Origin: an uncultured Candidatus Binatia bacterium
Lineage (GTDB): Bacteria; Desulfobacterota; Binatia; Bin18
Direction: 5' to 3'
Assembly: GCA_965200965.1 (NCBI GenBank)
Contig: OZ241744.1
Span: 2,784,001-2,848,000, forward strand
DNA length: 64,000 bases
The notes under the pieces are model-generated. The model saw only the letters and a program-made list of their open reading frames with translations. It was not told where the DNA came from and ran no database searches. Positions within the stretch are counted from its first letter, which is position 1; every line of letters begins with the position of its first letter. A program made the position numbers and the translations under genes. Positions 3,071 through 55,973 of this stretch are shown piece after piece.

Positions 3071-5707
3071 TCAGGAACCGTGCTCAATCAGTTCATATAC
3101 CTTTTGCAGCGCTTCATCGAGCCGGGTGGGGTCTTTGCCGCCGGCTTGGGCAAAGTCCGAACGACCGCCCCCACCGCCCCCTACAATCGGGGCGAGCTGT
3201 TTCATCAAATCGCCGGCCTGATAGCGCCCGGCAATATCTTTACTGACCGTGGCCAGCAGACTGACCCGATCGCCGTTGACCACGCCCAGTACGATCACCC
3301 CCGGCTGGAGTTTATCCCGCAGCCGGTCGGCCATCTCCCGGAGGCCGGTGGCATCAACGCCGTCAACCCGGCTGGCCAGGACCTTGATGCCGTTCAGCTG
3401 CCGAGCCGTGCCGAGGATCGCGTCACTCTGCGAGCCGGCGACTTGGCTTTGCAGCGCGGCCAATTGCTTTTCCAGCTCACGCTGTTGGGCTAAGAGACGT
3501 GCTATTTTATCGGCGACTTCTTCTTCTGCACCTTTGACCAGCGTACCAAGTTCTTTGAGCAGCTGCTCTTTGTGGCGCACCCAGCCGAGGGCGGTGCCGC
3601 CTGTCGTGGCTTCGAGGCGCCGCACCCCAGCGGCCACGCCACTCTCGGCCTTGAGCTTGAACAGACCGATATCGCCGGTCCGGCCGATGTGGGTGCCACC
3701 GCACAGCTCGGTTGAGAAGTCGCCCATCCGAACCACCCGGACGCGCTCGCCGTACTTTTCGCCAAAAAAGGCCAAGGCACCGCTTTTCAGGGCCTCGTTG
3801 AGGGACATGTCGTCGCTGCTGACCTGGGCATTTTCACGAATATGGGCATTGACCAGGGTCTCGATCTGCTCCAGTTCGTCCGGTTTGAGCGGGCTGGTAT
3901 GGGTAAAGTCAAACCGCAGGCGGTCGGGCGTCACCAGGGAGCCGGCTTGACGGACATGGCTGCCCAAGACCTGTCTGAGAGCGGCGTGCATCACATGCGT
4001 AGCCGAGTGGTTGAGCCGGGTCGCTTCTCGCCGGGCGGTGTCAAGGATGAGACGCACCCGGTCTCCGGTTTGAATGGCACCGCGGCTGACCCGGCCCCGG
4101 TGGATGGTCAACAGCGGCTGGGGTGTCTGGGTATCGACAATCTCAACGATATCGCCCCGGCTGGTTTCCAGCCGGCCGCGATCCCCTACCTGGCCGCCAG
4201 ATTCGCCGTAGAAAGGCGTCTCCGCGGTGACAATATCGACCGTCTCGCCCTGGCCGACCGCACGGTGCTGCACGGTGCCGTTGAGCAGCACGGCGACGAT
4301 CTCGGATTCCCATTCGGTGATGCGGTCGCCAACAAAACGCGAGTGCAGATCGCTCAGGTCGGTGGTGAGCGAAACCGGGGGTTTCCGGCCGGCGCGGGCG
4401 CGGTTGCGTTGCCCTGCCATGGCCCGCTCAAAACCGGCTTGGTCCAGCCCCAAGCCCTCGGACGACAGGATGTCTTGGGTCAGGTCGGGCGGGAAGCCGT
4501 AGGTGTCGTACAGCCGAAAGGCTATCTCTCCAGACAGGCGGGTGCTCGTGCCGCTGCGCAGGCAGCTGAGCTCGTGTTCCAGCAGGGCCAGACCCCTGGC
4601 CAGGGTGTCTGAGAAGCGCGCTTCCTCAGTCCGAATGACTTCGCTGAGATAGTCGCGGCGCTCGCGGAGCGCAGGATAGGCCGCGCCCATCAGGGCCACC
4701 ACACGGTCGGCCACGCGCCACAAAAAGGGCTGCTCCAAGCCGAGCAAGCGCCCGTGGCGGAGCGCCCGGCGCACGATCCGGCGTAGCACATAGCCCCGGC
4801 CCTCGTTGCTCGGCACAACGCCGTCGGCAATGGCAAAGGCCGCGGCCCGGGCATGATCGGCAATCACCCGGAGCGAGATGTCGCTGTCCGGCGCGCGGCC
4901 ATAGCAGGTGGTGCTTAACGCTTCGGCGGCGCGGATGGTGTCGCGCAGCAGGTCCGCGTCATAATTGCCCGGTACGCCTTGGAGGACGGCGGCGATGCGC
5001 TCGAGGCCCATGCCGGTGTCCACATGCCTCGCCGGCAGATCGTTGAGCGAGCGGTCGGGATTGCGGTTGTGCTGAATAAACACCAGGTTCCACAGTTCAA
5101 TGAAGCGGGGACAGGCGGTGTTGATCTCGCAGGTATGTCCCGGCGTGTTGACCCGATCGCACGCGCCCGGTCCCCGGTCAATGTGAATCTCAGAGCACGG
5201 ACCGCAGGGGCCGGTTTCGCCCATCTCCCAAAAATTGTCCTTGTCCCCAAAGCGCAGAATCTGGTCTGGGTTGATAGTGGTCTTGGTCCGCCACAACTCA
5301 TCGGCTTCGTCGTCGGTCGTATACACGCTTGCCCACAGGCGGTCCGAGGGCAGTTTCCACACCTCGGTCAGCAGTTCCCAGGCCCAGCCGATGGCCTCTG
5401 CTTTGTAATAATCGCCAAACGACCAGGTGCCAAGCATTTCAAAGAAGGTGTGATGATAGGTATCCCGGCCAACTTCTTCGAGGTCGTTGTGTTTGCCCGA
5501 TACCCGCAGACACTTCTGGGCATCCACCACCCGGGGGTGGGTCGGCTGTTCCATTCCCAGAAAGATGTTCTTGAACGGCACCATGCCGGCGTTGGTGAAC
5601 AGGAGCGTCGGGTCGTTGGCTGGAATGAGGGACGCGCTGGGCACGATGCGATGACCCCGGTCCGCAAAAAAACGCAGAAAACTGTCTCGAATTTCGTTTC
5701 CGGTCAT
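3071..5707 (-). CDS. alaS: Alanine--tRNA ligase
   Basis: DPTLLFTNAGM, HHTFFEMLG, HSATH editing motif, ELCGGTH and GGGGG..FAQAGG. Confidence 0.98.
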   Translation of the reverse strand: MTGNEIRDSFLRFFADRGHRIVPSASLIPANDPTLLFTNAGMVPFKNIFLGMEQPTHPRVVDAQKCLRVSGKHNDLEEVGRDTYHHTFFEMLGTWSFGDYYKAEAIGWAWELLTEVWKLPSDRLWASVYTTDDEADELWRTKTTINPDQILRFGDKDNFWEMGETGPCGPCSEIHIDRGPGACDRVNTPGHTCEINTACPRFIELWNLVFIQHNRNPDRSLNDLPARHVDTGMGLERIAAVLQGVPGNYDADLLRDTIRAAEALSTTCYGRAPDSDISLRVIADHARAAAFAIADGVVPSNEGRGYVLRRIVRRALRHGRLLGLEQPFLWRVADRVVALMGAAYPALRERRDYLSEVIRTEEARFSDTLARGLALLEHELSCLRSGTSTRLSGEIAFRLYDTYGFPPDLTQDILSSEGLGLDQAGFERAMAGQRNRARAGRKPPVSLTTDLSDLHSRFVGDRITEWESEIVAVLLNGTVQHRAVGQGETVDIVTAETPFYGESGGQVGDRGRLETSRGDIVEIVDTQTPQPLLTIHRGRVSRGAIQTGDRVRLILDTARREATRLNHSATHVMHAALRQVLGSHVRQAGSLVTPDRLRFDFTHTSPLKPDELEQIETLVNAHIRENAQVSSDDMSLNEALKSGALAFFGEKYGERVRVVRMGDFSTELCGGTHIGRTGDIGLFKLKAESGVAAGVRRLEATTGGTALGWVRHKEQLLKELGTLVKGAEEEVADKIARLLAQQRELEKQLAALQSQVAGSQSDAILGTARQLNGIKVLASRVDGVDATGLREMADRLRDKLQPGVIVLGVVNGDRVSLLATVSKDIAGRYQAGDLMKQLAPIVGGGGGGRSDFAQAGGKDPTRLDEALQKVYELIEHGS

Positions 5708-6228
5708 AGCTCGTCTTCTTTCGGCCGCGGACGGCCCAATAGCTGTTCGGCAAACTCGGAGGAATATCCCCGCCGCACGAGCAGGCGCAGCGCCCGGGCA
5801 CAGGTCTGCTGTTGTAGCGCGCCCGCCGGAAAACGGCTAGACAGCAGCTTGCGGGCACCGCTGATCTCAAGGTCTGCCTGTCGGGCTTCCAGTGTCTGCT
5901 CAATCAGGGCGGCGTCAAGCTGGTGGTGAACGAGTTTTTGCCGGATGGCGGCCGGGCCAAAGCCGCGCGTCTGAAAACGCTGGGTCAACTCCGCGGCCAG
6001 GCGGGCATCGTTGAGATAGCCCTGGCGGGTGAGGTCTAGGGCGGCTTGCTCCACCGCGCGTGGGCTGAAGCTAAACAAGCCTTACCTCACTCCGTGCTGA
6101 GTCGCTTGCTCCACCGCGCGTGGGCTGAAGCCTTTGGCGCGCATCTTTGCTGCCAGGCCAGCCGCACTATAGGCCCGTTGGCCCAGCAGACGACAGGCGT
6201 AGTCAAGGGCGGTGAGCGTGCCGGTCAT
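5704..6228 (-). pseudogene. recX: RecX regulator interrupted by an in-frame 60-bp insertion that carries a TAA stop
   Basis: From ATG 6228 (ATGA overlap with the aroC stop): MTGTLTALDYACRLLGQRAYS...KGFSPRAVEQATQHGVR*GLFSFSPRAVEQAALDLTRQGYLNDARLA...GFGP..IRQKL...LVRRGYS. Removing 60 bp restores a 154-aa RecX upstream of alaS. Confidence 0.85.
6044..6131. repeat. Perfect 28-bp direct repeat (6044-6071, 6104-6131) around a unique 32-bp insert
   Basis: GCTTGCTCCACCGCGCGTGGGCTGAAGC x2, separated by TAAACAAGCCTTACCTCACTCCGTGCTGAGTC. Confidence 0.95.
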
Positions 6229-7358
6229 CTGCGAAGCCGCCGCCGCCGTGTTCCAGCCGCGGAATCGTAGTCAATATAATCGCGCGGCGAAAAATACTCC
6301 CGCGCCCCCCGGGTGGCTGAATCCTGGAGCACAGAGTCGGCCAGGACCAGGGCGAGCATGGCCTCGGCAATCGGGACGCCCCGGATCGCCACGCACGGGT
6401 CGTGGCGGCCGCGGGTGGCAACCGTGCGCGGCCGAAAGTTCACATCAATCGTGCTTTTGTCCTGGGGGATTGACGAGGTGGGCTTGACGACGAGCCGCAC
6501 GACGATCGGTGCGCCAGAGGAAATGCCGCCCAGCGTCCCGCCGTGATTATTGGTGACAAATCCTGTTGGAGACAGTTCGTCGTTCATCTGGCTCCCGCGC
6601 ATGGCCGCGGCGGCAAACCCCGCCCCGAACTCAACCCCCTTGACCGCGGGGATGGACATCAGCGCCGCGGCAATCTCGGCGTCGAGCTTGCCAAAAACCG
6701 GCTCGCCAAGCCCTGGCGGAACACCTTCGGCCATGACCTCAATGACCCCCCCGACAGAATCCCGCTCTTTTCTGGCCTGTTCGACCTCGGCGCGCATGGC
6801 GGTCACGCTGTCCGGGTCAAGGCTGCGCAGCTCATTGTCTTCGACCGCGTCCCAGGCCCGTTTGCTGGCTCGCACCGTGCCGACCTGGGTGACGCCGCCG
6901 CGTATCGTGATGCCAAAGCGGACCAACAGCTGCTTGGCCAGGGCACCGGCAAACACCCGCCCCACAGACTCTCTGACCGACGCCCGACCACCCCCGCGAT
7001 GGTCACGGTGCCCGTACTTGGCAAAATAGGTAAAGTCGGCGTGTCCGGGACGGAACAGGCGGGCGAGTTCGTCATAGTCTTTGGAGCGCATATCGGCGTT
7101 GAAAACCAGGGCCATCAGCGGAGTCCCGGTGGTCTTGCCCTCAAACACGCCCGAGAAAATCTCAACCTTGTCCCCCTCTTTGCGTTGGGTCACCAGTTTT
7201 GATTGTCCAGGCCGGCGACGGTCCATCTCGTGTTGAATGGCTGCGAGGTCCAGTGCAAAGTCGGCCGGAAAACCATCCACAACGACGCCAACGGCTCTGC
7301 CGTGGCTCTCCCCGAAGGTCGTCACGCGCAATACGGTGCCAAACGTGTTTCCTGGCAT
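6225..7358 (-). CDS. aroC: Chorismate synthase
   Basis: NTFG..LRVTTFGESHG, RPGHADFT, GGGRAS.RE and RGRHDPC motifs. Confidence 0.97.
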   Translation of the reverse strand: MPGNTFGTVLRVTTFGESHGRAVGVVVDGFPADFALDLAAIQHEMDRRRPGQSKLVTQRKEGDKVEIFSGVFEGKTTGTPLMALVFNADMRSKDYDELARLFRPGHADFTYFAKYGHRDHRGGGRASVRESVGRVFAGALAKQLLVRFGITIRGGVTQVGTVRASKRAWDAVEDNELRSLDPDSVTAMRAEVEQARKERDSVGGVIEVMAEGVPPGLGEPVFGKLDAEIAAALMSIPAVKGVEFGAGFAAAAMRGSQMNDELSPTGFVTNNHGGTLGGISSGAPIVVRLVVKPTSSIPQDKSTIDVNFRPRTVATRGRHDPCVAIRGVPIAEAMLALVLADSVLQDSATRGAREYFSPRDYIDYDSAAGTRRRRLRR

Positions 7359-7391
7359 AGCTGTCCTGACATATCGGAAGAGGCCAGGCAA

Positions 7392-35953: not shown

Positions 35954-38900
35954 GGTCTATCCCCGCGTGTGCGGGGGAACCCTCGGATTGATACAGCCGC
36001 CCCGGTGTGTGAACGGTCTATCCCCGCGTGTGCGGGGGAACCGCGCTCCTGAGCCAAGCCTGCTATGTGGAAAAGGGTCTATCCCCGCGTGTGCGGGGGA
36101 ACCAACTGACAGGGCAGAACATGACGAATGAACCCGGGTCTATCCCCGCGTGTGCGGGGGAACCTCACTGGAGACCTAGAGCACCCGAACGCTGGCAGGT
36201 CTATCCCCGCGTGTGCGGGGGAACCTGGAGACCAACACCCGCGAAGCCTTTCTCTGCGGGTCTATCCCCGCGTGTGCGGGGGAACCTGGAGACCAACACC
36301 CGCGAAGCCTTTCTCTGCGGGTCTATCCCCGCGTGTGCGGGGGAACCGGCGACGTGCGCGACTGCTATAGTCGGTTGAGCGGTCTATCCCCGCGTGTGCG
36401 GGGGAACCTGCCAGGCGGACAGAGTGAACTCGCCCTTTTGGGGTCTATCCCCGCGTGTGCGGGGGAACCACCCGACTTCGGCACGGTCTGGATTGGATGG
36501 AAGGTCTATCCCCGCGTGTGCGGGGGAACCGCTCGTCTTCCAGCAGGTGTGCCAAGGGCATGAGGTCTATCCCCGCGTGTGCGGGGGAACCGCGCTTGCG
36601 CTGGGCTGAGGGTCTGTGTCCGGAGGTCTATCCCCGCGTGTGCGGGGGAACCATTCAACAGCTGGGCAGGGTGATGCGCCCGTCGGGTCTATCCCCGCGT
36701 GTGCGGGGGAACCTCACCGGGAGTTGCGTTCGATCTGGAGGGATGAGGTCTATCCCCGCGTGTGCGGGGGAACCACCTCCTGAACCCACCACCACCAGCC
36801 AGCCAGCGGTCTATCCCCGCGTGTGCGGGGGAACCTCCTGGACTCAGGATAAGAATGCCTCATAGGAAGGTCTATCCCCGCGTGTGCGGGGGAACCATCG
36901 AGTGGGCGCATGTGATAGACGCGGATGAGGGTCTATCCCCGCGTGTGCGGGGGAACCCGACTCTGGCCCTGTTCCGTCTAACTGGACGGGGGTCTATCCC
37001 CGCGTGTGCGGGGGAACCATGGTATCAATCAGTTGATTGACGGCAAGCTGCGGTCTATCCCCGCGTGTGCGGGGGAACCGCCCGGCGGTCACTCCTGACG
37101 GGGTGACGGGGAGGTCTATCCCCGCGTGTGCGGGGGAACCCCCTAGTTAGGAGGGCAAGGGTAAGCCTTAGGCGGTCTATCCCCGCGTGTGCGGGGGAAC
37201 CCACTGCGAGCGGCCACCTGGTAGCCTCGGCGCGGTCTATCCCCGCGTGTGCGGGGGAACCCCTCATCGACCAGGTCCATCACTAGGCGCTTCAGGTCTA
37301 TCCCCGCGTGTGCGGGGGAACCTACGGCGGGGATGTTCTGATAGTCGGACAGACAGGTCTATCCCCGCGTGTGCGGGGGAACCGGGATACCGCCAGGGTA
37401 AGCCGACTCGATATCCGGTCTATCCCCGCGTGTGCGGGGGAACCGCACAGGACCGTATCAACGGACACCGGCAGATCGGTCTATCCCCGCGTGTGCGGGG
37501 GAACCATGACCGACGAGAGCCGCATACCGCAAACGACCGGTCTATCCCCGCGTGTGCGGGGGAACCTCAACAGTCAGCAATCCGGCGCAGTTCACCACAG
37601 GTCTATCCCCGCGTGTGCGGGGGAACCGACATCCGTGTGCAGCTTGCGGGTCAGCTCATCGGTCTATCCCCGCGTGTGCGGGGGAACCCGGACCACAGAG
37701 CGACTTGGCGATGTCGTCTTAGGTCTATCCCCGCGTGTGCGGGGGAACCCAACGTCGGTCTCCGCAAGCTCCGCGGATGCCGGGTCTATCCCCGCGTGTG
37801 CGGGGGAACCCGGCTCTCTGAGCCGGGGCTATCCGTCTCAAGAGGTCTATCCCCGCGTGTGCGGGGGAACCCTATCTATACTAATGTCAATAGCCTGTCT
37901 AAACGGTCTATCCCCGCGTGTGCGGGGGAACCCCATCCACCCGGCGGCATAGGGATCGCTGAATCGGTCTATCCCCGCGTGTGCGGGGGAACCTTTCCAA
38001 AGACGAGGGGCAGACCTGGACGCAAGGGTCTATCCCCGCGTGTGCGGGGGAACCGGAGAAGAAGGCAGGAAGGTAGGGGGAGTTGGAGGTCTATCCCCGC
38101 GTGTGCGGGGGAACCGAGGAGACGCTGAGTGAGGCGGCGCTGCGCCTCGGTCTATCCCCGCGTGTGCGGGGGAACCGCCTCTGTTCCACGCGCTGCCAGA
38201 AGGTGGAGAGGTCTATCCCCGCGTGTGCGGGGGAACCCACCGATTGTTCAGCGCTGTCATATTGGAGATAGGTCTATCCCCGCGTGTGCGGGGGAACCAC
38301 GATTGCAGTTCCTCAATCAGCTTCTTGCACCGGTCTATCCCCGCGTGTGCGGGGGAACCGGTTTGGGTTAGCCTCGGAGATCCATCTCCAGAGGTCTATC
38401 CCCGCGTGTGCGGGGGAACCGTGCTCATGTGTCCTCCTGGGCGCGGGCTTGGAGGTCTATCCCCGCGTGTGCGGGGGAACCGTGCTCATGTGTCCTCCTG
38501 GGCGCGGGCTTGGAGGTCTATCCCCGCGTGTGCGGGGGAACCCTTCCTGGACCAGAAAACCGGCGTTTTCGGCCTGGTCTATCCCCGCGTGTGCGGGGGA
38601 ACCAGAGAAGATAGGCCCGCAGCCTATCGGATAGTGGGTCTATCCCCGCGTGTGCGGGGGAACCATACGCAATATGTACCACCGCGTCGGCCAAGAGGGG
38701 TCTATCCCCGCGTGTGCGGGGGAACCGGGTATGGCTTGAAGGATGGCCTGACTGGACTGGGTCTATCCCCGCGTGTGCGGGGGAACCCGGTCCAGCTACT
38801 ACCCGGCCATGACAGGGGGAGGTCTATCCCCGCGTGTGCGGGGGAACCATCCCCAGCCCCCGCCCTCGGTCGCCAAGTCCGGGTCTATCCCCGCGTGTGC

Positions 38901-41900
38901 GGGGGAACCTCGCAAATGCGCCAGCTCAAAGGGGGAGTCGCGGGTCTATCCCCGCGTGTGCGGGGGAACCGAGCTTACGCGCAAGCTGCACACGGATGTA
39001 ACCGGTCTATCCCCGCGTGTGCGGGGGAACCTGAGCGAAATTAAATCTGACCCGGGCGTGAAAAGGTCTATCCCCGCGTGTGCGGGGGAACCTAGGCGGT
39101 CCGCCGATGTGTGTCGCGTGAAACAGGTCTATCCCCGCGTGTGCGGGGGAACCGCATAACACTCTTTGCTATCAAAGACGTATCCCGGTCTATCCCCGCG
39201 TGTGCGGGGGAACCGCTGGAAGAGCTCTTCTGCTTGCGCCTTCGTGAGGTCTATCCCCGCGTGTGCGGGGGAACCAGGCAGAGGGTCATCCGGCAGTGCA
39301 GGCCTACGGGTCTATCCCCGCGTGTGCGGGGGAACCCCTGGAAGATGCCCTTCGGGTAGACATGAGCCGGGTCTATCCCCGCGTGTGCGGGGGAACCCGT
39401 GCTCTGAGTGCAAAGCCTCCGACTCCCGGGGGTCTATCCCCGCGTGTGCGGGGGAACCCGGGCGATCGATCGGCTCGAGCGCACCGAGTTTGGTCTATCC
39501 CCGCGTGTGCGGGGGAACCGATCATTGGCTTAGCCTTGGTAGGACGCTTAAAGGTCTATCCCCGCGTGTGCGGGGGAACCACGCTGAGCGAGGCGGCGCT
39601 GCGCCTCCTGGCGGGTCTATCCCCGCGTGTGCGGGGGAACCAGATCGATGCGTACCTCCAGGCCGTGGGGCGCGGGTCTATCCCCGCGTGTGCGGGGGAA
39701 CCATCTCGCCTATTCCGCAGAGAAAGGGCTCGAGCGGTCTATCCCCGCGTGTGCGGGGGAACCCGCGGGTACGGCGATCGTGATGCGAGCCGCGACGGTC
39801 TATCCCCGCGTGTGCGGGGGAACCATGACAGGCCGCCATTTGCGTTGCTTCATATTCGGTCTATCCCCGCGTGTGCGGGGGAACCTTTACCGCTGGGTCG
39901 ATACGGAAGCTCTCAAGAGGTCTATCCCCGCGTGTGCGGGGGAACCGAACAAATCCACGCCGCCCATGACGAGGAAGACGGTCTATCCCCGCGTGTGCGG
40001 GGGAACCTTGCCCGCGAGCTCTGCGACCCGGTCTATGCAAGGTCTATCCCCGCGTGTGCGGGGGAACCCGCGTCACTCCCAGCGTGGTGGCGGCGCAGCT
40101 CGGTCTATCCCCGCGTGTGCGGGGGAACCCGCTATGTTGATGTTCAACATTGGCTACGCGCGGGTCTATCCCCGCGTGTGCGGGGGAACCATCAACCAGG
40201 GCGGACAGCGCCAGCAGCTCATGGGTCTATCCCCGCGTGTGCGGGGGAACCCAGTACCAGGATGTCCCTGACTCTATGCGCCGGGGTCTATCCCCGCGTG
40301 TGCGGGGGAACCCCAAGAGGCGATCCGCCGTAACGTCCCAGATGGGTCTATCCCCGCGTGTGCGGGGGAACCTCTTCCAGCATGCACGGCAACGGGCCCG
40401 GGCCGGGTCTATCCCCGCGTGTGCGGGGGAACCACGGGGAGGCGCATGTGCGTTTGGCCTATCTGTGGTCTATCCCCGCGTGTGCGGGGGAACCGATCGG
40501 GCCGTGCTGGCCAAGTCTCGCATCCGGGGTCTATCCCCGCGTGTGCGGGGGAACCGCGCTCTGAGACTCCCCCTCGATATAATCCGGCGGTCTATCCCCG
40601 CGTGTGCGGGGGAACCTTGGGCGGTAGTCATGTTGAAACCCCTTTCAGGGGTCTATCCCCGCGTGTGCGGGGGAACCCAAAAGGGGGCTGTATGTATGAG
40701 TCATTCATGCGGTCTATCCCCGCGTGTGCGGGGGAACCGAATACCTGGCTAGCCTTTTTGGGGCTAGCTGCGGTCTATCCCCGCGTGTGCGGGGGAACCC
40801 GTGAGGCGCTTTCAAGCAATGGGGCTGACAAAGGTCTATCCCCGCGTGTGCGGGGGAACCTCAAGAAGACAGTCGTTCACGGCAAGCTGGTGGGGTCTAT
40901 CCCCGCGTGTGCGGGGGAACCCTTACGCCTGGAACAATACCACGGCGACAACCCGGTCTATCCCCGCGTGTGCGGGGGAACCTTGTTGATCTGCCTCTGA
41001 TGACTGAGCGCAAAAGGTCTATCCCCGCGTGTGCGGGGGAACCCCCGGCGCAGTCACCATGTACGGCACCCGGTACGGTCTATCCCCGCGTGTGCGGGGG
41101 AACCGGCTTCGGGTTGGTGTACAAGTTCCACAACTCAGGTCTATCCCCGCGTGTGCGGGGGAACCAGGATAGCCAGTGACGTACATGCACCACTGGCAGG
41201 TCTATCCCCGCGTGTGCGGGGGAACCCGCGGTTCTTCCCACGGAGCCGATGATCCGAACGGTCTATCCCCGCGTGTGCGGGGGAACCGCGTTGCGCCAAC
41301 GGATCAAGTACTTGATGACGGGTCTATCCCCGCGTGTGCGGGGGAACCCATCGCGATTTTTTGGCGCGTCGCCCTGCTCAGGGTCTATCCCCGCGTGTGC
41401 GGGGGAACCCGCGCCTCGCTCCTGCAGTTTTTTGTCCATGCTGGTCTATCCCCGCGTGTGCGGGGGAACCCCAGAGAGATTTTTTTTAGGGTCTTTAGGA
41501 AGGGGTCTATCCCCGCGTGTGCGGGGGAACCTACTGGCAGTACAATGATCCCCACGACAATCAGGGTCTATCCCCGCGTGTGCGGGGGAACCTTACCAGT
41601 ATTGGCGTCAGGATCGCGAAAGAAAGGTCTATCCCCGCGTGTGCGGGGGAACCAACCGACGGTAGAGGCCCAAATACACACCAGAGGGTCTATCCCCGCG
41701 TGTGCGGGGGAACCCATAGACTGCATAGCAGCGAGGCGAGCTTCATGGGTCTATCCCCGCGTGTGCGGGGGAACCGGATCCGCCAGCTGGGTGAGAAACG
41801 GCAAGATGGGTCTATCCCCGCGTGTGCGGGGGAACCCGCACCGGTCCCCGACCGAACTGGCGGCTGTACGGTCTATCCCCGCGTGTGCGGGGGAACCATA

Positions 41901-44900
41901 CTCCGGAGACTCGGCGTGCCACGGGACTTCGGTCTATCCCCGCGTGTGCGGGGGAACCACTACGCTCGGCTGGCTGCCGCGTCTTGAATACGGTCTATCC
42001 CCGCGTGTGCGGGGGAACCCGATCCGCGGGCCTTTGGTCCCGTGCGCAAATGGGTCTATCCCCGCGTGTGCGGGGGAACCCGCTGCGTCGTCAAGGCGTT
42101 GTCAAACCGCCCAGGTCTATCCCCGCGTGTGCGGGGGAACCACAGGTAGAACGGTTGCTCACTATTCCCCAGAGGGTCTATCCCCGCGTGTGCGGGGGAA
42201 CCCATCGGTGTTAGGCGCTCGGTGCGTCTTCACAAGGTCTATCCCCGCGTGTGCGGGGGAACCGCGTCAGCCGGGATTGTAGCCTCTCCTGCCTCGGGTC
42301 TATCCCCGCGTGTGCGGGGGAACCTCTTTATCTCAGCGGTGGAGCAGCTATCCAAGAGGTCTATCCCCGCGTGTGCGGGGGAACCACAGGCATCGAGGAG
42401 AGCACGGGCCGCATGGACGGTCTATCCCCGCGTGTGCGGGGGAACCACCCAGTTAGCCGACTGACGGAAATATTCCAACGGTCTATCCCCGCGTGTGCGG
42501 GGGAACCAGAATCCCCCGCCCGCTTGGTGGCAGACCCGTAGGTCTATCCCCGCGTGTGCGGGGGAACCACAAGGTCAATCAGAGCCTCAATCAGATATGG
42601 AGGTCTATCCCCGCGTGTGCGGGGGAACCCTGGACCAGCCGGAGGCGTAAATGGCATTCTGGGGTCTATCCCCGCGTGTGCGGGGGAACCACCTTCAGGC
42701 GAGAACCGCCTTGAGCAACCCCAGGTCTATCCCCGCGTGTGCGGGGGAACCATCGAAACAGGAGCCAGTACCCAACCGTTATAGGGTCTATCCCCGCGTG
42801 TGCGGGGGAACCGTTCAGCCCGATTTCGGTACGGTATGGATAGGCGGTCTATCCCCGCGTGTGCGGGGGAACCGAGGATCGCCAGTCGGCTTCCGGGTAT
42901 GGACGCGGTCTATCCCCGCGTGTGCGGGGGAACCCGTCATCTTATCTCCGAGATCGACATAGCCAAAGGTCTATCCCCGCGTGTGCGGGGGAACCTCCAC
43001 TGGCAAGAGCCGGTCGTTCGGCACGAAGGGTCTATCCCCGCGTGTGCGGGGGAACCGCCAACACGCATCGTCGATGACGCTGACGGTACGGTCTATCCCC
43101 GCGTGTGCGGGGGAACCCATGCGAGTATTGCCGGGTAGCGAAGAAGCAAAGGTCTATCCCCGCGTGTGCGGGGGAACCACCCAGTTAGCCGACTGACGGT
43201 AGTACTCCAGCGGTCTATCCCCGCGTGTGCGGGGGAACCGCTGGTAAGCGGGAAACCAAGTATCGCGTGACAGGTCTATCCCCGCGTGTGCGGGGGAACC
43301 CGTCTGATATTTCGGCGACAAAGCGCGGTTGGAGGTCTATCCCCGCGTGTGCGGGGGAACCAATCGAACCGACCTTCATAGCGGAATGTAAAGGGGTCTA
43401 TCCCCGCGTGTGCGGGGGAACCCCCATCCAGTCGATACGACCTTCGAACCGGAAGGGTCTATCCCCGCGTGTGCGGGGGAACCTACGGCAGCCTACCGTA
43501 CAGATAGTTGATCGCGGGTCTATCCCCGCGTGTGCGGGGGAACCGACGGGCTTCCTACTTTCGTGAGACGCTGAATGGGTCTATCCCCGCGTGTGCGGGG
43601 GAACCACTATGGTCCGGCGGCTGGGCGGTGGTGGCGCAGGTCTATCCCCGCGTGTGCGGGGGAACCACTTGCTTGCAAGTCATGCGCAACCGTCGTCACG
43701 GTCTATCCCCGCGTGTGCGGGGGAACCACCGAGACCAAGGCGGAAACGACGATACGCGGGGGTCTATCCCCGCGTGTGCGGGGGAACCCATCGCCCGATA
43801 TCCAGGCCCAGGCTGTGCGTAGGTCTATCCCCGCGTGTGCGGGGGAACCACCACAGACCAATCGAGCCCGGGCAAGAAAATAGGTCTATCCCCGCGTGTG
43901 CGGGGGAACCGCCGCCCAACCTTCTTCGTAGATGTGCCTCAGCGGTCTATCCCCGCGTGTGCGGGGGAACCGCGGAGCGCCCGGGCGCTGGGCCGCGTTG
44001 ATTGGGTCTATCCCCGCGTGTGCGGGGGAACCACTTCCAGAAGACGGGAGAATGGCGCTGGTTTGGGTCTATCCCCGCGTGTGCGGGGGAACCTGCAAGA
44101 CCTGAGCGATCATTGCGCGATGTTGGGGTCTATCCCCGCGTGTGCGGGGGAACCGTCCGACAGTAGATGATGCTCACATGCCGTCTCGGTCTATCCCCGC
44201 GTGTGCGGGGGAACCACTGGCTGACCAATGTCAGATGCACCAGTCTTGGGTCTATCCCCGCGTGTGCGGGGGAACCGTTCAGCCCGATTTCGGCACGGTA
44301 TGGGTCGGGGGTCTATCCCCGCGTGTGCGGGGGAACCACTCGGCCTTCCTGGCTCAATACGGTGTCCAGGGGTCTATCCCCGCGTGTGCGGGGGAACCAC
44401 AATCTGGCTCAACTCGGCTGGCTCTGGCCTCGGTCTATCCCCGCGTGTGCGGGGGAACCGTCAAGCGGGGAGCTCGTATCGTCCCAGTACGGGGTCTATC
44501 CCCGCGTGTGCGGGGGAACCGCTGCCCTGCGTCGTTGGCTGATGCCTTTGCGCGGTCTATCCCCGCGTGTGCGGGGGAACCCCCGTCGGCTTGGGCTGAT
44601 GTGTGGTCCGAGGCGGTCTATCCCCGCGTGTGCGGGGGAACCAGACACCACAGCCAGCCATGTTCCGAGAAGAACGGTCTATCCCCGCGTGTGCGGGGGA
44701 ACCAGACATATATGCCACCCGGCGATTTTCTCGCCAGGTCTATCCCCGCGTGTGCGGGGGAACCGCAGCTGCTCCGCTCCACTGGCATCTGGCCGCGGGT
44801 CTATCCCCGCGTGTGCGGGGGAACCCGAAGGAGAAAATGACCCAGTGGGAATACATAGGGTCTATCCCCGCGTGTGCGGGGGAACCCGATTTAGCCATGC

Positions 44901-47900
44901 TATCGATCCACTTTCGAAAGGTCTATCCCCGCGTGTGCGGGGGAACCGGCCCTATCGCGTCTCATCATCGCCGGTCAGGAGGTCTATCCCCGCGTGTGCG
45001 GGGGAACCGCTCATATCCGGTACTAAAGTACCAGTCCGGAAGGTCTATCCCCGCGTGTGCGGGGGAACCACATGGATCCAGCGCCCAAACTCGGAAATGA
45101 CTGGTCTATCCCCGCGTGTGCGGGGGAACCTAGTGAATCTCACCACGCGATCGGACATGCTGAGGTCTATCCCCGCGTGTGCGGGGGAACCGGCCCTGGA
45201 GCCACCAACCAGGCGCAATCCAAGGGTCTATCCCCGCGTGTGCGGGGGAACCATGCATCTGAGGCATCAGGCATCCTCCCGAAAGGGTCTATCCCCGCGT
45301 GTGCGGGGGAACCTGGCAATGGATGAAGGGGCATGGGTGAAATTTAGGTCTATCCCCGCGTGTGCGGGGGAACCCGATAACGTGGACAACTCCAAGCCTC
45401 CCCAGGCGGTCTATCCCCGCGTGTGCGGGGGAACCACACCTCCTCTCTTAACTCGATCGTCTTGCTCCGGTCTATCCCCGCGTGTGCGGGGGAACCCCGG
45501 CCTTGGTAGAGGTACGCTGCAGGGCCTGAGGTCTATCCCCGCGTGTGCGGGGGAACCTATCCTGGACGAGCTCGGCGAACTAGAGGAGTGGGTCTATCCC
45601 CGCGTGTGCGGGGGAACCTCACTGGATGTAATCGCGCAGGCGGGCATCCAGGGTCTATCCCCGCGTGTGCGGGGGAACCACTGGCTAAGTCCGGCCTGGT
45701 CCCTGAGGTCCAGGTCTATCCCCGCGTGTGCGGGGGAACCGTCCGGCGCTCAACGGTGATCTGACATCCCGCAGGTCTATCCCCGCGTGTGCGGGGGAAC
45801 CGCACCAATGCCCAGGACGGGCCGAACCTGAACAGGTCTATCCCCGCGTGTGCGGGGGAACCCGTGCCCAGAAGATGGCTATTGGAGGTATCAGGGGTCT
45901 ATCCCCGCGTGTGCGGGGGAACCCAGTCAAAAACAGCATCCACCACGACCGACGGAGGTCTATCCCCGCGTGTGCGGGGGAACCGACTTTGGCACGGTCT
46001 GGCTTGGTTGGTCGATGGGTCTATCCCCGCGTGTGCGGGGGAACCACCCAATTAGCGCTTTGCCTGAAATACTCAAGCGGTCTATCCCCGCGTGTGCGGG
46101 GGAACCCTCGTGCGTCCAGTGCTACTGATCGGTGCTGCAGGTCTATCCCCGCGTGTGCGGGGGAACCTCACTGGATGTAATCGCGCAGGCCGCCATCCAG
46201 GGTCTATCCCCGCGTGTGCGGGGGAACCATCTGCTGGATACTGGTGTAGTCTCTGGCACGGGGTCTATCCCCGCGTGTGCGGGGGAACCTGATATGGCCT
46301 TCTCGTTCTGCCACGGAAGGACGGTCTATCCCCGCGTGTGCGGGGGAACCCTTCTTTGTCTCTTGCCACTTGGGATGGGTCCCGGTCTATCCCCGCGTGT
46401 GCGGGGGAACCACTTTCACCAAGGAGGTGGAGAGTATCCGGGGGGGTCTATCCCCGCGTGTGCGGGGGAACCCCGAAACGGGCCGGCGCATAGTAGAACC
46501 AATAAGGTCTATCCCCGCGTGTGCGGGGGAACCCTCGGACCGGAATATCCGGTCCGAATCCTATTGGGTCTATCCCCGCGTGTGCGGGGGAACCCCTGAC
46601 GCCGGCGAGATATTTGCTTGGCTCTCAGGTCTATCCCCGCGTGTGCGGGGGAACCGCCGGTGCCGGTAGAGGTCTACTGTCTGGTCTCGGTCTATCCCCG
46701 CGTGTGCGGGGGAACCATTGCCTGGACTTATGGGCGTATCTACGACAATGGTCTATCCCCGCGTGTGCGGGGGAACCAAGATAGGCCTGGATAGCCACAC
46801 GCATGGGCCGGGTCTATCCCCGCGTGTGCGGGGGAACCATGTCCGAAATGCCTTTAAGGCCCAGTACTGTCGGTCTATCCCCGCGTGTGCGGGGGAACCG
46901 AAAGATAATCGCGCATGACCTTACCACGGCGCGGTCTATCCCCGCGTGTGCGGGGGAACCCAGCGTGACCCCCGGCCGGTCATCCCAGACTGCGGTCTAT
47001 CCCCGCGTGTGCGGGGGAACCGATTACAAGGTGTACCGGAGAGCATCCAGCCGCGGTCTATCCCCGCGTGTGCGGGGGAACCAAATCTTACGCGATCACG
47101 GGTAAGGCCCGATGCGGTCTATCCCCGCGTGTGCGGGGGAACCGAGGACGGACTATGAAGAAGAAGCTCAAACCCAGGTCTATCCCCGCGTGTGCGGGGG
47201 AACCAACGATGCGACACCGACTGTGAGAAGGGTATCAGGTCTATCCCCGCGTGTGCGGGGGAACCGGGACGCGACCCCGAACTGAAAGAGTTCACAGGGG
47301 TCTATCCCCGCGTGTGCGGGGGAACCTTCCACTACGGACAAACTCACCTTATCGGGATGGGTCTATCCCCGCGTGTGCGGGGGAACCGGGGCTATGTTCT
47401 TCGTGCTGAATCGTTGCAGCGGTCTATCCCCGCGTGTGCGGGGGAACCATAAGCTCTGCGTTTACATCAGTCTCGACCGGGGGTCTATCCCCGCGTGTGC
47501 GGGGGAACCGTGGCGACCGAGAACTGACACATATCCCGGCCGGGTCTATCCCCGCGTGTGCGGGGGAACCACAGCTATCGGAAAGATGGATAAACCCAAA
47601 GCGGGTCTATCCCCGCGTGTGCGGGGGAACCGATGACCCTCATGCATCACCTTCAATCTCAAGAGGTCTATCCCCGCGTGTGCGGGGGAACCAGACATAG
47701 CCATCTTCCTGATTTCTTCCTTCTGGGTCTATCCCCGCGTGTGCGGGGGAACCCAGCCCAACCTCCGCCAGCGGGATTTCCTGGCCGGTCTATCCCCGCG
47801 TGTGCGGGGGAACCGCTGACGAACTCTATTCCCTGGCGGCGCTCAGCGGTCTATCCCCGCGTGTGCGGGGGAACCGAGCTTTCGCCGCGTCCACGAACAG

Positions 47901-49583
47901 CCTGTAGAGGTCTATCCCCGCGTGTGCGGGGGAACCGCCTATTGATCGCTCCCTTCCCTGACCTCTGCCGGTCTATCCCCGCGTGTGCGGGGGAACCGCC
48001 GTGGCGGTGGCCTCGGAGCCGTGAAGAGCGGGTCTATCCCCGCGTGTGCGGGGGAACCTATCAGAACATCCCCGCCGTAGTAGTCAGCCACGGTCTATCC
48101 CCGCGTGTGCGGGGGAACCGCCGCCAAGGACGCCAAGCTCACGGGCAAGTCAGGTCTATCCCCGCGTGTGCGGGGGAACCCACTATTCGGACGGATACCA
48201 GGCAGATACGGCAGGTCTATCCCCGCGTGTGCGGGGGAACCTGGAACATCAACGACCACACCGAGCTGGAAGTGGGTCTATCCCCGCGTGTGCGGGGGAA
48301 CCCCCAACATCCGCTTTCATCCAACTCTTCCTACCGGTCTATCCCCGCGTGTGCGGGGGAACCAGCGCCTCAAACCGGGCGTTCATCAACGCAAACGGTC
48401 TATCCCCGCGTGTGCGGGGGAACCCCGCTGCCCGGTTAGGATACTGCATGAGGACCAGGTCTATCCCCGCGTGTGCGGGGGAACCTCTCTGAGATTTCAC
48501 AGATCACAACCCCAAGCGGGTCTATCCCCGCGTGTGCGGGGGAACCGCCGTGAGCCGGGGATAGTCTCTCAATCCAGGAGGTCTATCCCCGCGTGTGCGG
48601 GGGAACCGCGGCGTCATCGCGCTCCTCGTCGAGTCGGCACGGTCTATCCCCGCGTGTGCGGGGGAACCCTGCTGAAGTCAAATATGACGTCCGTATTCAA
48701 CGGTCTATCCCCGCGTGTGCGGGGGAACCCTGGGGATGGCTCATGCTGTTGCCCCTTGCTTCGGTCTATCCCCGCGTGTGCGGGGGAACCTAACCAACCG
48801 CCCCTTCGGGGGCAATCCCAAGAGGTCTATCCCCGCGTGTGCGGGGGAACCATGACGTACCGAGCAAGCGCGAAGGCTATGGAGGGTCTATCCCCGCGTG
48901 TGCGGGGGAACCAGAAACCATCGGCCTAGGCGGGGTTTTGGCAGAGGTCTATCCCCGCGTGTGCGGGGGAACCATGCTGAAGATCATGCACGAAAAGCTC
49001 ACTGAGGGTCTATCCCCGCGTGTGCGGGGGAACCCCGCCAGCCCTCGCGCCATCGGGGTAGCCGTCAGGTCTATCCCCGCGTGTGCGGGGGAACCTATTC
49101 CTGGCCCGAAAATCCCGACGGGGTGAAGGGTCTATCCCCGCGTGTGCGGGGGAACCGTCTACAGCGAGGTCCATGATCTCGCCGTCAGCGGTCTATCCCC
49201 GCGTGTGCGGGGGAACCAGCTTCGCCATCGTGTCCTCCTCAATCTCAAGAGGTCTATCCCCGCGTGTGCGGGGGAACCGTCACATCAGCATAAGTCAGGG
49301 TCAAAAAGTAGGGTCTATCCCCGCGTGTGCGGGGGAACCACGCTAATGTGGTCCGGCGTGGGCATTGCGTCGGGTCTATCCCCGCGTGTGCGGGGGAACC
49401 AGTACCGTTGTCAGCCATTAGGGAGCCTCCGAAGGTCTATCCCCGCGTGTGCGGGGGAACCTGGACGACGCCGAGGATAGCGAAACCAATAGGGGGTCTA
49501 TCCCCGCGTGTGCGGGGGAACCTCCCACAAAGGACGGTATGAGACGCCCAAGAAGGGTCTATCCCCGCGTGTGCGGGGGAACC
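35954..49583 (-). CRISPR. Type I-E CRISPR array, ~224 repeats / ~223 spacers
   Basis: 28-bp repeat GGTTCCCCCGCACACGCGGGGATAGACC (minus strand), period ~61 bp. Count estimated as span/61. Orientation inferred from the leader next to cas2 and the ATAGACC handle. Confidence 0.99.
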
Positions 49584-49661: not shown

Positions 49662-49973
49662 CTAGGTATCCTGACCCGGACCCGGGCCGGTTCGCCTGGA
49701 GAGAATGACACCCTCCTGATCTACCAGCTCGACGGGGGGCGTGCCAAGGACGCGCACGGACTGCCCGCTTGGCTGGCGCGAGTCCTGCCAGGTCATGACA
49801 ATGGACCGCCCCCCAAGCCCGAGGAACCAGTCTGAGATCACTGCCCATATGCGGTCCCGGACACGCGCGGAGAGTCGTGGGGCGGTGTAGACCCCCGGCG
49901 CAATCTCCAGCATGCACGAGGCCAGAAACCCGCGGATGCGCGGGGCAACATCACGGGTGACTATGACTGTCAT
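49662..49973 (-). CDS. cas2: Type I-E Cas2
   Basis: MTVIVTRDVAPRIRGFLAS.MLEIAPGVY...RDRIW; lies after cas1. Confidence 0.93.
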   Translation of the reverse strand: MTVIVTRDVAPRIRGFLASCMLEIAPGVYTAPRLSARVRDRIWAVISDWFLGLGGRSIVMTWQDSRQPSGQSVRVLGTPPVELVDQEGVILSRRTGPGPGQDT

Positions 49974-50832
49974 CGTCGTCAATCAACTGGATGATCCGGT
50001 CAATCATCTTTGTGATGAGTTTTGTCTGTCTGAAGCGCCGACCGGCCAGCCGTCGGACATGCCGTTCAAGCGGGATATGTCCGTTTGCGGAGTAGTGGCT
50101 GACCGCTTCAAAGGCGACCGGGATGGTGACTTCGGTCCTATACAGGTCTGCAATGTCGAGACAAAAGGCAATGGAAGCGTCCTCGTGGACAAAGCCGAGC
50201 GGGGGCAGGGTTCCAGTGGCGGCGACGGCCACAAGGGCCGCGGCTTCGGTGGCCGTCGCCGCGTGGTTGATGGCTTGATTGGGGTCGTCGGCTATGTCGG
50301 GGCGCTGCCTGTCGTAGCGGCGTCCGTACCAGTCAATGCCGTAGCGCTCGGCCAGCAGGCGGTAGGATTCTTTCATCCGGGCTCCTTCGATCCCGCGCAT
50401 GATGGCGATGTCCTGTTCGGGCAGGACTTCGCCCAGCCGCCAAGCGTACATCCGGCGGGCGGTCCGCAGCCGTGACCGTCGGTCGTTCCAGAGTTTCGCC
50501 TGACGGCGTGCTCGTCGTGAGTCGTTCGGCCCAAAGGGCTGGGCACTGTACATGCGCACGCCGTCTTCCCCAACGGCAACAAGGCCGGTCCCGTGTCGGG
50601 CCAGCAGCCGGAAAACGTCGTGGCTGACGGTTGAGCCAGGCCCGAGCAGAATGAATGAGATATTCTGAAAGGGGATGGCATAATCGCCGGCCTGCATATC
50701 CGCAGACCCGGCGGTGCGAAACCGCAAGGTCCCATCCTCTACGGTGAGATTTCCCCGCGCCAGCCACAACAGGCCGTGGCGGTCGGCGTGGGGGATCCGC
50801 GCCTCCTCCAGTCCTAATCTGCCTTTCAGCAC
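49951..50832 (-). CDS. cas1: Type I-E Cas1
   Basis: LLGPGSTVSH, RGIEGARM, DPNQAIN, LGFVH and DIADLYR motifs. Confidence 0.96.
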   Translation of the reverse strand: MLKGRLGLEEARIPHADRHGLLWLARGNLTVEDGTLRFRTAGSADMQAGDYAIPFQNISFILLGPGSTVSHDVFRLLARHGTGLVAVGEDGVRMYSAQPFGPNDSRRARRQAKLWNDRRSRLRTARRMYAWRLGEVLPEQDIAIMRGIEGARMKESYRLLAERYGIDWYGRRYDRQRPDIADDPNQAINHAATATEAAALVAVAATGTLPPLGFVHEDASIAFCLDIADLYRTEVTIPVAFEAVSHYSANGHIPLERHVRRLAGRRFRQTKLITKMIDRIIQLIDDDDSHSHP

Positions 50833-50834
50833 TG

Positions 50835-50862
50835 GGTCTATCCCTGCGTGTGCAGGGGAACC
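50835..50862 (-). repeat. Solitary CRISPR repeat variant at the cas6/cas1 junction
   Basis: GGTTCCCCTGCACACGCAGGGATAGACC, 26/28 identical to the array repeat; the two changes pair with each other. Confidence 0.93.
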
Positions 50863-51596
50863 GCCTTGGCGGCCGCGGGACGCAAGAGCAGCATTCCATA
50901 GCCGTAGGCGCGGTGCCGGCCAATGCCCCGGGCCAGCAGTTCGGCGAAGGTCCCGGCATTAGTAATGGTGAGGGTGCCCCGCATGAGCGCGTCCGGCCCC
51001 TCGCTAGAACGGGCGTGTCGCTTGCGAATAGCGCGGCTGCGCTGAAAGGATTGCAGGCCTGCCTTGCCTTCCAACTTTGCCCCGCCATGCCGCCCGAACT
51101 GCTTGGCCAGCCAGTCGCTATAGACCTCTTCACGGCTGCGCTTCATTTTCCTGTCCGGGTCCTCCTTCGGGTGCTGAAGGGCTTCCCATAAGAAAGCGTC
51201 GCACTCCGTATCTGCGCAATCGCCTGCACCACGGGGACGGCGGATAATGGGACGCACCCGCGTCTCAAAGCCGAGGCGCTTGCCGGTCTGCCAGGCTGCC
51301 GGCATGGGCTTGCTGTCGAGGCTGGCGGCAGGAATTACCCTGGCTTGGAGCGGGCAGGCATGGATGTCAGCCTCGGCGCGCAGGGCTTCGGCGTCAGCCT
51401 GCCCATAGCCGTACAGAACGCCGCGGGGCTGAGCGCGGCCGATCATCAGCCGAAAGGGCTTGGGGGCCAGTTCGCCGAACATTTCGGTCAGCAGGCAGTG
51501 CATGGCGTGGTCGCTGTCCTGCAAGCGCCTGGAGCCGGCCCAGCGCTGGAGGTTTTGCGCGTCTATGTCGGCGCGTATCATGTGGAGTGAGGCCAT
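50838..51596 (-). CDS. cas6e: Type I-E Cas6e (Cse3/CasE)
   Basis: C-terminal LARGIGRHRAYGYGMLLL Gly-rich loop; start MASLHMIR after an AGGAG RBS. Confidence 0.95.
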   Translation of the reverse strand: MASLHMIRADIDAQNLQRWAGSRRLQDSDHAMHCLLTEMFGELAPKPFRLMIGRAQPRGVLYGYGQADAEALRAEADIHACPLQARVIPAASLDSKPMPAAWQTGKRLGFETRVRPIIRRPRGAGDCADTECDAFLWEALQHPKEDPDRKMKRSREEVYSDWLAKQFGRHGGAKLEGKAGLQSFQRSRAIRKRHARSSEGPDALMRGTLTITNAGTFAELLARGIGRHRAYGYGMLLLRPAAAKAVPLHTQG

Positions 51597-51598
51597 AG

Positions 51599-52321
51599 TC
51601 AGGACTCCTTCCTGAAAGATGAATCGTTGCCTTCGCACACCAGCCGCCCGCCGCCGTGCAGGCCGGATAGCCAGTTGCGTTGGTCGGTAAGCGGATAGCT
51701 CCGGCTGGGGGCAATCGTTTCGATACCTTCGCCGTCGGGCCACAGCAGTTGTCGGGGGGTCGGCTCATCTGGTTCGGGGGCGCACAGGGCGGCCAGGGCG
51801 GTAGCGCCGTCGCGGCACTCGGCAAACAGCGGCGCTGAGGGCAGACACGGTTTGCGCCCGATGAACAGCGGACGCGCCGGCTCTTGCAGCGCCTCGGCTA
51901 GGTCGTCCAGGGTTGGCGCGTCGTCTGGCGGTTCCAGGCGCACGGCGAGGCTGACGCGCATATCGGCGAAGTAGTCGCGGTAGCGCAGATGGGGCGCGTC
52001 ATAGGTCTTCTGGCCGCCGGTCCGACCCTCGGGCTGTCCGCGCGTGGTCCAGGCCGTATCTTTGTCCCCGAGTTGCGCGGTCTGAAAGTCGGTCAGATGC
52101 GCATCGCCGGCCGGCTCCCGGTCAATGCGGGCGGCGAAAATTAGCCGGTCTTGCAAGTGCTGATGCTGCTCTCGCTGGGTGCGTCGCCAGCCCAGGGCAT
52201 TCGCGAACAGGCCGGTCAGCATGGACGCCGCGGGAAACTGGCGGATGACTCCATAATTGTCAATTGTCTCACCGCCAAAGGCCATAAGCGGGCTTTCCAG
52301 GTTCAGGATCAGATGCCGCAT
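51599..52321 (-). CDS. cas5e: Type I-E Cas5 (CasD)
   Basis: LNLESPLMAFG...P..S.LTGL.ANALG, R.RDY.AD and PLFIGRKPCLPS motifs. Confidence 0.95.
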   Translation of the reverse strand: MRHLILNLESPLMAFGGETIDNYGVIRQFPAASMLTGLFANALGWRRTQREQHQHLQDRLIFAARIDREPAGDAHLTDFQTAQLGDKDTAWTTRGQPEGRTGGQKTYDAPHLRYRDYFADMRVSLAVRLEPPDDAPTLDDLAEALQEPARPLFIGRKPCLPSAPLFAECRDGATALAALCAPEPDEPTPRQLLWPDGEGIETIAPSRSYPLTDQRNWLSGLHGGGRLVCEGNDSSFRKES

Positions 52322-52323
52322 GA

Positions 52324-53544: not shown

Positions 53545-53565
53545 TCTCCTTGTGGTGATGCTGTG

Positions 53566-54162
53566 TTAGTCTGTTGATTGCGGGGCATTGCGCCGCTCGG
53601 CCTGATAGTAGGTGCGGGCGATACCGCGGCGTGCTGCTTCGGCCTGTTTTTCGTTATAGCCATCGTTCAGGATGAAGAATGTCATTTCACGCCAGTTGAA
53701 GGGTTGGTTGGCAGCGGCCAACATGCGGAACAGCCGTGCCAGCAGAACACGCAGCATCGGCCCTCGTGCCGTCAGCAGTCGGTTCAGGCGTGTCTCGCTG
53801 TAGAAAGCGGCTGTCCGCCGGGCGTCACCGCCGAAGAACAACGCTCGGCCAACAGGCATCGATCCGTCGTGGGCGGAGCGTCGGTCAGCCGTGCCGGTCA
53901 TCAGCGCGATGCCGTGCAGGATGAGCGCCCATTTGCGTTCGAGGGTGGGGTTGCCCAACAGTTCCCGGTATGCCAGGAGCCGCCAGAAGGCCGCTGCATC
54001 GGGGGCGTCCGGGTCCATGCGCCGCAATTCGGCTAGATCGCCCCGGCGAAAATCGGGCTGTGATAGAACATGGGCAAAACCCGCCGCAATAGCGTCCCAA
54101 GTCTGCTGTTCGCCTTCCAGCGTCGGCGTAGCGGACGCTGGAAGAGGTTGCCTATGTGTCAT
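53566..54162 (-). CDS. cse2: Type I-E Cas11 (Cse2/CasB)
   Basis: GDLAELRR, SETRLNRLL and IARTYY motifs; operon position. Confidence 0.88.
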   Translation of the reverse strand: MTHRQPLPASATPTLEGEQQTWDAIAAGFAHVLSQPDFRRGDLAELRRMDPDAPDAAAFWRLLAYRELLGNPTLERKWALILHGIALMTGTADRRSAHDGSMPVGRALFFGGDARRTAAFYSETRLNRLLTARGPMLRVLLARLFRMLAAANQPFNWREMTFFILNDGYNEKQAEAARRGIARTYYQAERRNAPQSTD

Positions 54163-55763: not shown

Positions 55764-55945
55764 ACGTCTGCTTTCCCTTTCAGTCGCTTCTGGTCAGAAG
55801 CGTGTCTGTTCTGTACCCTTACTCGCATCGCCCCGTATTGAGTCTGCAACGTCAGGGACGCAGGAGAGGGGAGGACAGCGCGAACAGCGGCAATATCCGG
55901 TATCACCATTTCCACCAGGGCTTCGGTAGCCTTGTTTTGTTTCAT
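55736..55945 (-). CDS. 69-aa hypothetical ORF leading the Cascade transcript
   Basis: Strong RBS AGAAAGGAGAAAAA-ATG just after the promoter; overlaps the cas8e start by 28 nt. Confidence 0.45.
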   Translation of the reverse strand: MKQNKATEALVEMVIPDIAAVRAVLPSPASLTLQTQYGAMRVRVQNRHASDQKRLKGKADVCSTFSRNH

Positions 55946-55973
55946 TTTTTCTCCTTTCTTTTAGACATAGACA

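Follow-up and report, generated by a model that had tools for sequence, protein, structure and literature searches.

Spacer-sized insertions at one position of recX in Candidatus Binatia, very probably the work of off-target type I-E Cas1-Cas2 integration

In this study we analysed a window of 64,000 nucleotides (contig OZ241744.1, positions 2,784,001 to 2,848,000) from the genome of an uncultured Candidatus Binatia bacterium (assembly GCA_965200965.1, referred to as G000), in which the gene of the RecA inhibitor RecX is split by a 60-base insertion that brings a TAA to recX codon 49 on the minus strand. This insertion was very probably made by off-target type I-E Cas1-Cas2 integration: the enzyme of G000 would have placed a captured 33-bp fragment not in the CRISPR array but in a part of recX that resembles the repeat. 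We base this reading on the empty sites in relatives, the presence of the cognate system, the repeat-like target and sibling scars with chromosomal donors, and the same observations support the original prediction, in which the locus had been regarded as a natural ectopic adaptation event. Different inserts were detected at the same place in another strain and in a sister species. We lean, with modest confidence, towards the view that the recX stretch is a recurrent, leaderless second address of the type I-E Cas1-Cas2, used at the same nucleotide across strains and species, so that CRISPR adaptation would extend or inactivate the RecA inhibitor again and again. Off-target type I-E integration is known from laboratory E. 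coli; for repeated natural insertion at one nucleotide no report was met in the literature searched.

A direct-repeat scan revealed an exact 28-bp duplication (6044-6071 identical to 6104-6131) enclosing 32 bp that are unique in the genome; both this duplication around unrelated DNA and the TAA at codon 49 had been described earlier, and they were borne out by the sequence. Between aroC and alaS the minus strand contains 48 codons, the TAA and then a 124-codon open reading frame starting with TTG, and RecX models are matched by both pieces in the profile search. The genes are tightly packed: the aroC stop overlaps the recX start, and the stop of the recX 3' piece overlaps the start of alaS (ATGA). 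The features of the locus and of the resident type I-E system are as follows.

6044..6070, plus strand (repeat-sense orientation): target copy 1, 27 bp, or 28 counting base 6071
6071..6103, plus strand: spacer-like insert in single copy, 33 bp, or 32 if base 6071 is assigned to the duplication
6104..6130, plus strand: target copy 2, the duplicated target
6082..6228, minus strand: recX 5' piece, 48 aa, ending at the insert-borne TAA and containing most of three-helix repeat 1
5704..6078, minus strand: recX 3' piece, 124 aa from the insert-internal TTG, with repeats 2 and 3
6076..6093, minus strand: Shine-Dalgarno-like stretch and TTG in the insert, a predicted restart signal
3071..5707, minus strand: alaS, directly downstream of recX, with a weak ribosome-binding site of its own
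6225..7391, minus strand: aroC, upstream of recX
35954..49583, minus strand: type I-E CRISPR array, 224 repeats of 28 bp, spacers of 33 bp, leader at the right end
49662..50832, minus strand: cas2e and cas1e, the likely integrase
50838..58941, minus strand: cas6e, cas5, cas7, cse2, cse1 and cas3 of the same type I-E system

The profile search showed that the type I-E cas operon is complete and adjoins the array of the window, where 220 of the 223 spacers are 33 bp long; the resident array had accordingly been described correctly as one with 28-bp repeats and spacers of about 33 bp. There are six cas1 loci and six CRISPR loci in G000, and units of 28+33 (repeat plus spacer) are found in the type I-E system only, the unit sizes of the other five being 37/38+33-37, 36+34-38, 37+30/31, 37+36-46 and 25+18.

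The insertion is real, derived and strain-specific. The comparison was carried out on contigs assembled from sequencing runs that carry the same DNA (X1, X3, X7 and X11), several of the runs holding window DNA being labelled sponge metagenome and no RNA run being among the holders listed. In run X1, possibly the source sample, the whole 901-bp stretch (5600-6500) was present in one contig with 0 differences; since this evidence consists of assembled contigs, rare variants within X1 may be present. Exactly 60 bp were missing at 6043-6104 in runs X3, X7 and X11, which belong to three other studies (empty site in 3/3), and the X3 contig was otherwise identical across the 901 bases. Furthermore, recX is uninterrupted in six of the seven other genomes of the genus. 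The junction support and the comparison with the recX of close relatives that had been proposed earlier were therefore both obtained, and the named pitfalls did not materialize: the junctions are spanned, and an origin from a multicopy element or by slippage disagrees with an insert that is single-copy and unlike its flanks (identity 0.38).

Two further alleles with inserts were recognized at the same recX position. In G004, a genome of the sister species (81-83% DNA identity), the target, in the version of that genome, is duplicated over 27 bp around a different 33-mer, which is in frame and contains no stop; the empty allele of that species is represented by protein P0006. P0043, the RecX of another strain of the window's species, is known from its protein sequence only and agrees with the intact form of this species in everything but a 9-aa duplication and 11 new residues in the same place; its junction codon, as inferred from the protein, encodes Asp and is thus incompatible with a duplication of 28 bp in that register. 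In the window's species five intact RecX sequences on 17 contig records stand against two with inserts on one record each, these records not being independent samples; expressed as distinct RecX sequences, 2/7 bear an insert in this species and 1/2 in the sister species. Each of the three insert alleles holds one insert, with no expansion to two or more spacers. They could have arisen by three separate events, or two of them could be derived from a two-spacer stage, and both histories need repeated integration at the site. A search for short RecX fragments with other stop-carrying inserts gave no scoring hit, and no RecX loci were found in the JGI metagenomes.

Base 6071/6131 is ambiguous, as it can be assigned either to the duplication or to the insert. 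Because a 27-bp duplication is present in both other insert alleles of the site (G004 by DNA, P0043 from protein), the event in the window was most likely 27+33 rather than 28+32, with one base matching by chance. Thus the exactness of the repeat in the original prediction stands and its 28+32 geometry is the less probable one; the terminal GCTT/AAGC palindrome becomes incidental. The sum of 27 and 33 is 60, consequently the reading frame is kept, two alleles adding 20 RecX residues and that of the window bringing a stop. A stop would come with 30% of the array spacers at this site, in line with one of the three alleles. Selection for frame was considered as the cause of the 27-bp duplication and dropped, since 27+33 is found in an intergenic scar too. 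Read in repeat sense, all three inserts begin with C or T, as do 152 of the 223 array spacers, which fits and does not discriminate.

The likeness of the target to the type I-E repeat depends on the register in which it is read. The ungapped 28-mer shares 13/28 positions with the repeat in repeat sense and 12/28 when reversed, near the identity of about 12/28 claimed earlier. The target was then parsed on the plus strand into two six-base motifs separated by a loop, with five bases before the first and seven after the second; as a 27-mer it is identical to the repeat at 16/27 positions (0.17% of random genome sites are as high) and its inverted motifs match at 9/12 (0.33% of random sites as high), the loop having 3 bases versus 4 in the resident repeat. 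The 28-bp register gave 13/28 and 7/12 only. The targets of the other two 27+33 scars of G000 also reach 9/12 in the inverted motifs. The recX target is able to fold as a hairpin, weaker than that of the repeat.

In E. coli, according to Goren et al. 2016 (PMC5039180), a single-base deletion upstream of the second inverted motif led to 27-bp repeats in >97% of the products, and the spacer was joined 8 nt after GCGGG. The recX insertion boundary lies 8 nt after GCGTG, and since the target loop is one base short, the 27-bp duplication is what the two-ruler model predicts; it should be emphasized that the loop-length rule is an E. coli result fitted to the recX site after the fact. The two cases therefore share the one-base shortening between the inverted motifs and the joining 8 nt after a GCGGG-like motif, but the E. 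coli experiments used plasmid-borne mutated repeats with a genuine leader, while the recX site is natural, leaderless coding DNA. By this model, Cas1-Cas2 would have docked on the inverted motifs of the recX target, the two strands would have been attacked 27 bp apart, and gap filling would then have duplicated the target.

Type I-E cas1 was above the cut-off in four of the eight genomes of the genus, G000 and G004 among them, and both genomes with a DNA-level recX scar hold the cognate cas1; G001 and G006 also possess it and their recX site is empty. Altogether, five of the seven features expected of a type I-E off-target integration were found at recX: a duplication of about repeat length, a 33-bp insert, empty relatives, cognate cas1-cas2 and array (examined in G000 and G004) and target likeness.

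The event in recX is accompanied by others in the same genome. The scan of G000 for exact direct repeats yielded five arrays and 14 isolated duplication-insert units, the sixth, 25+18 mini-array having been found separately. One unit (C1:3449078) proved to be a tandem duplication within an rpoC-like gene and was excluded; this left 13 scars sized to resident CRISPR systems, the recX scar included, so the genome scan suggested earlier for further duplication-spacer-duplication structures was productive. Four of them are I-E-sized (three 27+33, one 28+33), and one 27+33 scar is intergenic; the remaining ones fit the I-C, I-B, II-C-like or III-B unit sizes, this fit not being a one-to-one assignment. 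The targets of the longer scars mostly have no significant likeness to their repeats. An insert donor was identified elsewhere in the G000 chromosome for 5/13 scars, four exact and one with three mismatches. AAG stands in front of the donor of one 27+33 scar and TTC in front of the donor of one 38+34 (I-C-sized) scar, which we take to be the usual I-E and I-C PAMs; both scars are empty in 3/3 other runs. In G004, of which 1.8 Mb of 4.4 Mb were scanned, three further 28+33 scars and one 35+35 were present, and no scar was seen in 400 kb of G006. The I-E-sized scar at G004:C1:500128 has a donor with GAC or CCG in the PAM position, not AA plus one base; hence one of the two sibling I-E-sized donors is AAG-flanked and the other is not.

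No source match was obtained for the recX insert itself in G000 or its array spacers, in IMG/VR viral contigs, INPHARED phages, GTDB contigs and JGI metagenomes, or in 300 other genomes of the class at up to three mismatches. Likewise, the G004 recX insert had no second copy in the five genomes searched, and the P0043 insert peptide had no match of at least 7/10 in six frames of G000.

Between 1,708 and 13,610 sites of G000 mimic the repeat as well as the recX target does, therefore repeat mimicry alone does not explain the recurrence at recX. With these numbers the probability of two or more further recX hits is at most 0.002, a rough value that assumes 4 scars per genome and 10-25 alleles. 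The recX site looks to be preferred for a reason beyond its likeness to the repeat, and our best guess is that an extra local preference and tolerance of recX damage are behind the recurrence, which mimicry explains partly. It might also be, though we consider it unlikely, that the same enzyme acts without any special hotspot, the usable motif being rare, recX dispensable and the repeated hits a matter of chance and survival. If a strict motif derived from the scars found first is required, G000 has only 568 such sites, and the roughly estimated probability of two or more further hits rises up to 0.014. Cells hit in an essential gene would not survive, so that the pool is smaller still, and recurrence was seen only at recX, a site examined by prior choice. 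However, the strict motif had to be rejected, as it fails on 3/3 new G004 scars (their inverted-motif scores are 9, 6 and 7 of 12), therefore the pool of usable sites is larger and the lower probability of at most 0.002 applies. Moreover, the sites of the other three I-E-sized G000 scars are empty in the relatives searched, without recurrence, and the oxidoreductase gene split by one of them is intact in 6/6 other cluster members. Recurrent natural off-target integration at one site or nucleotide was not reported in the literature searched, most subscription papers being outside its scope.

A repair accident independent of Cas proteins, by template switching or capture of short fragments at staggered nicks, is in our judgement quite improbable. 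The wider scan (duplications of at least 25 bp, periods of 30-200, identity threshold set after seeing the data; one further scar was lost to the neighbour filter) returned 40 isolated units, in 19 of which the filler was unlike the flanks; 12/19 fell within the CRISPR size range, and the 7/19 outside it are what such repair could leave. The possible hairpin of the recX target and an insert that has no shown PAM point the same way. Nevertheless, such accidents would hardly produce, three times over and at one site, unrelated inserts that share both their own length and that of the duplication; in addition, the scar size classes follow the resident arrays, donors have PAM-like flanks, and the insert does not resemble its own flanks.

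Still more doubtful is the action of another integrase, whether from the five remaining Cas1 systems or from a small mobile element, intact or as a remnant. With six cas1 loci in one genome the cross-use of integrases between subtypes is conceivable, yet none of the other five unit sizes gives 27/28+33, and no type I-F (28+32) system was seen among the cas1 loci of G000; a type I-F origin was dropped when the sixth locus proved to be the 25+18 mini-array with a stop-broken cas1. An IS or MITE insertion was rejected as well: the insert is single-copy, the duplication measures 27-28 bp, and the three inserts are not related to each other, as copies of one element would be. That the duplication and insert were made by the assembly is hardly credible: all sampled words of the stretch are held only by runs of one sample (X1 and X2), maybe the source of this genome, but the independently assembled X1 contig crosses the insertion unchanged and unrelated assemblies carry different inserts at the same site.

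E. coli RecX requires most of its concave face, and an arginine of repeat 1 matters especially (PMC2500204). R18, invariant in the RecX sequences compared, is the likely equivalent of this arginine. The RecX of the window's strain is probably impaired: helices I-II of repeat 1 would be missing from the 124-aa piece, and R18 sits in the 48-aa piece. In P0043, the predicted model has high confidence in the RecX helices and low confidence only around the insert and the termini, which is weak evidence consistent with a tolerated loop.

The GAGG-N6-TTG of the insert was noted earlier and is indeed present (GAGG at 6085-6088, TTG at 6076-6078). The predicted ribosome-binding energy of this TTG is -9.0 kcal/mol, better than 97% of random TTGs; an equally strong restart at the recX site would be supplied by 0/67 stop-carrying array spacers, and the value for alaS itself is -1.1. 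From the predicted signal, re-initiation of translation at the TTG is plausible. Speculatively, this strong signal may let ribosomes continue into alaS, and surviving recX alleles may have been filtered to keep translation coupled to this essential gene, a thought that comes from one case noticed after the fact.

It is unlikely that the recX scar works as a new CRISPR array, because it has no leader, only one spacer, and its repeat sense (plus) is opposite to the operon, which is transcribed on the minus strand. The leader motifs common to the four native type I-E leaders are absent beside the recX site, no clear IHF-like sequence was seen there on comparison with the consensus, and there is no Rfam match at 5600-6500. 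Of the original designation as a nascent one-spacer array, the single spacer-like insert remains and the array reading is weak.

Off-target integration by the type I-E system of E. coli, resulting in 'neo-CRISPR' loci, was described by Nivala, Shipman and Church 2018, as cited in PMC7054753, 10.1101/148544 and PMC6698737. The type I-E Cas1-Cas2, the spacer-sized insert and the repeat-length duplication of a repeat-like chromosomal site are common to that work and to recX; there, according to these sources, Cas1-Cas2 was overproduced, oligonucleotides were supplied, and the evidence in two other species was circumstantial, whereas here wild uncultured strains are concerned, two species share one and the same insertion point, and the scars of a single genome apparently stem from several subtypes. 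Repeat-like non-CRISPR (plasmid) sites are used off-target also by Cas1-Cas2 of Pyrococcus furiosus (PMC6698737), but this is in vitro work on an archaeal system and does not document heritable population events. Ectopic acquisition in Streptococcus thermophilus CRISPR3 similarly occurs away from the leader end; it is reported to stay at true repeats inside the array (PMC7999890), whereas here a housekeeping gene is the target. A 2018 analysis considered it unclear whether neo-arrays are a common product (10.1101/148544).

The natural frequency of Cas1-Cas2 misfires, and what the enzyme reads without a leader, are open questions of the field. The recX site offers a natural, replicated case, with one 27-bp target, three inserts and otherwise identical empty alleles; it is suited to integration assays on leaderless preference and tests the E. 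coli ruler model on wild DNA. Adaptation acts here as a mutagen on recombination genes (recX, dprA), a possible cost of having six CRISPR loci.

The genes affected by other scars deserve mention. The scar at G000:C1:1842262 (L063:9762-9871) is I-C-sized (38+34), has a chromosomal donor and adds 24 residues in frame to dprA; two RecA regulators of G000, recX and dprA, carry scars. The 27+33 scar at G000:C1:1833927 (L063:1427-1513), with an AAG-flanked chromosomal donor, splits the gene of an FAD-dependent oxidoreductase. A 37+41 scar (G000:C1:2540592, L117) lies in frame in a gene of 495 aa with predicted PT-TG and ADP-ribosyltransferase domains, which by its domain content looks like a bacterial polymorphic toxin. 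In G004 the target cores of two 28+33 scars (C1:500128 and 1399850) are alike; they may belong to one dispersed repeat favoured as a target. The window also encodes a RecD2-like helicase of 1,261 aa (8941-12726, minus strand) with a long extension at its N-terminus and, internally, a short 15-bp tandem repeat.

Several observations concern the CRISPR loci themselves. A solitary, near-perfect type I-E repeat (26/28) at 50835-50862 of the window (minus strand) overlaps the stop codon of cas6e, two bases ahead of the cas1 start. It bears no insertion and was not seen at the equivalent place in the G001, G004 and G006 loci; in the cas mRNA it might be cut by Cas6. In the locus at L011:8577-9116 and 9176-10201, the mini-array of 25-bp repeats and 18-bp spacers has as its neighbour a short cas1 interrupted by a TAG stop, with a Cas12f/TnpB-like gene close by; the 25-bp repeat is present in G004 too. 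Beside the cas1 and the 37+30 array of another locus, a protein of 1,232 aa is encoded (L014:2034-5729, minus strand) that gave weak Cas9-domain matches (E 0.005-0.04) and is possibly a divergent Cas9. Finally, seven array spacers of G000 match its own chromosome over their full length, and three of the four type I-E ones among them end in the rarest terminal base (6/223 spacers), a hint that they have slipped or been flipped and in this way escape self-targeting.
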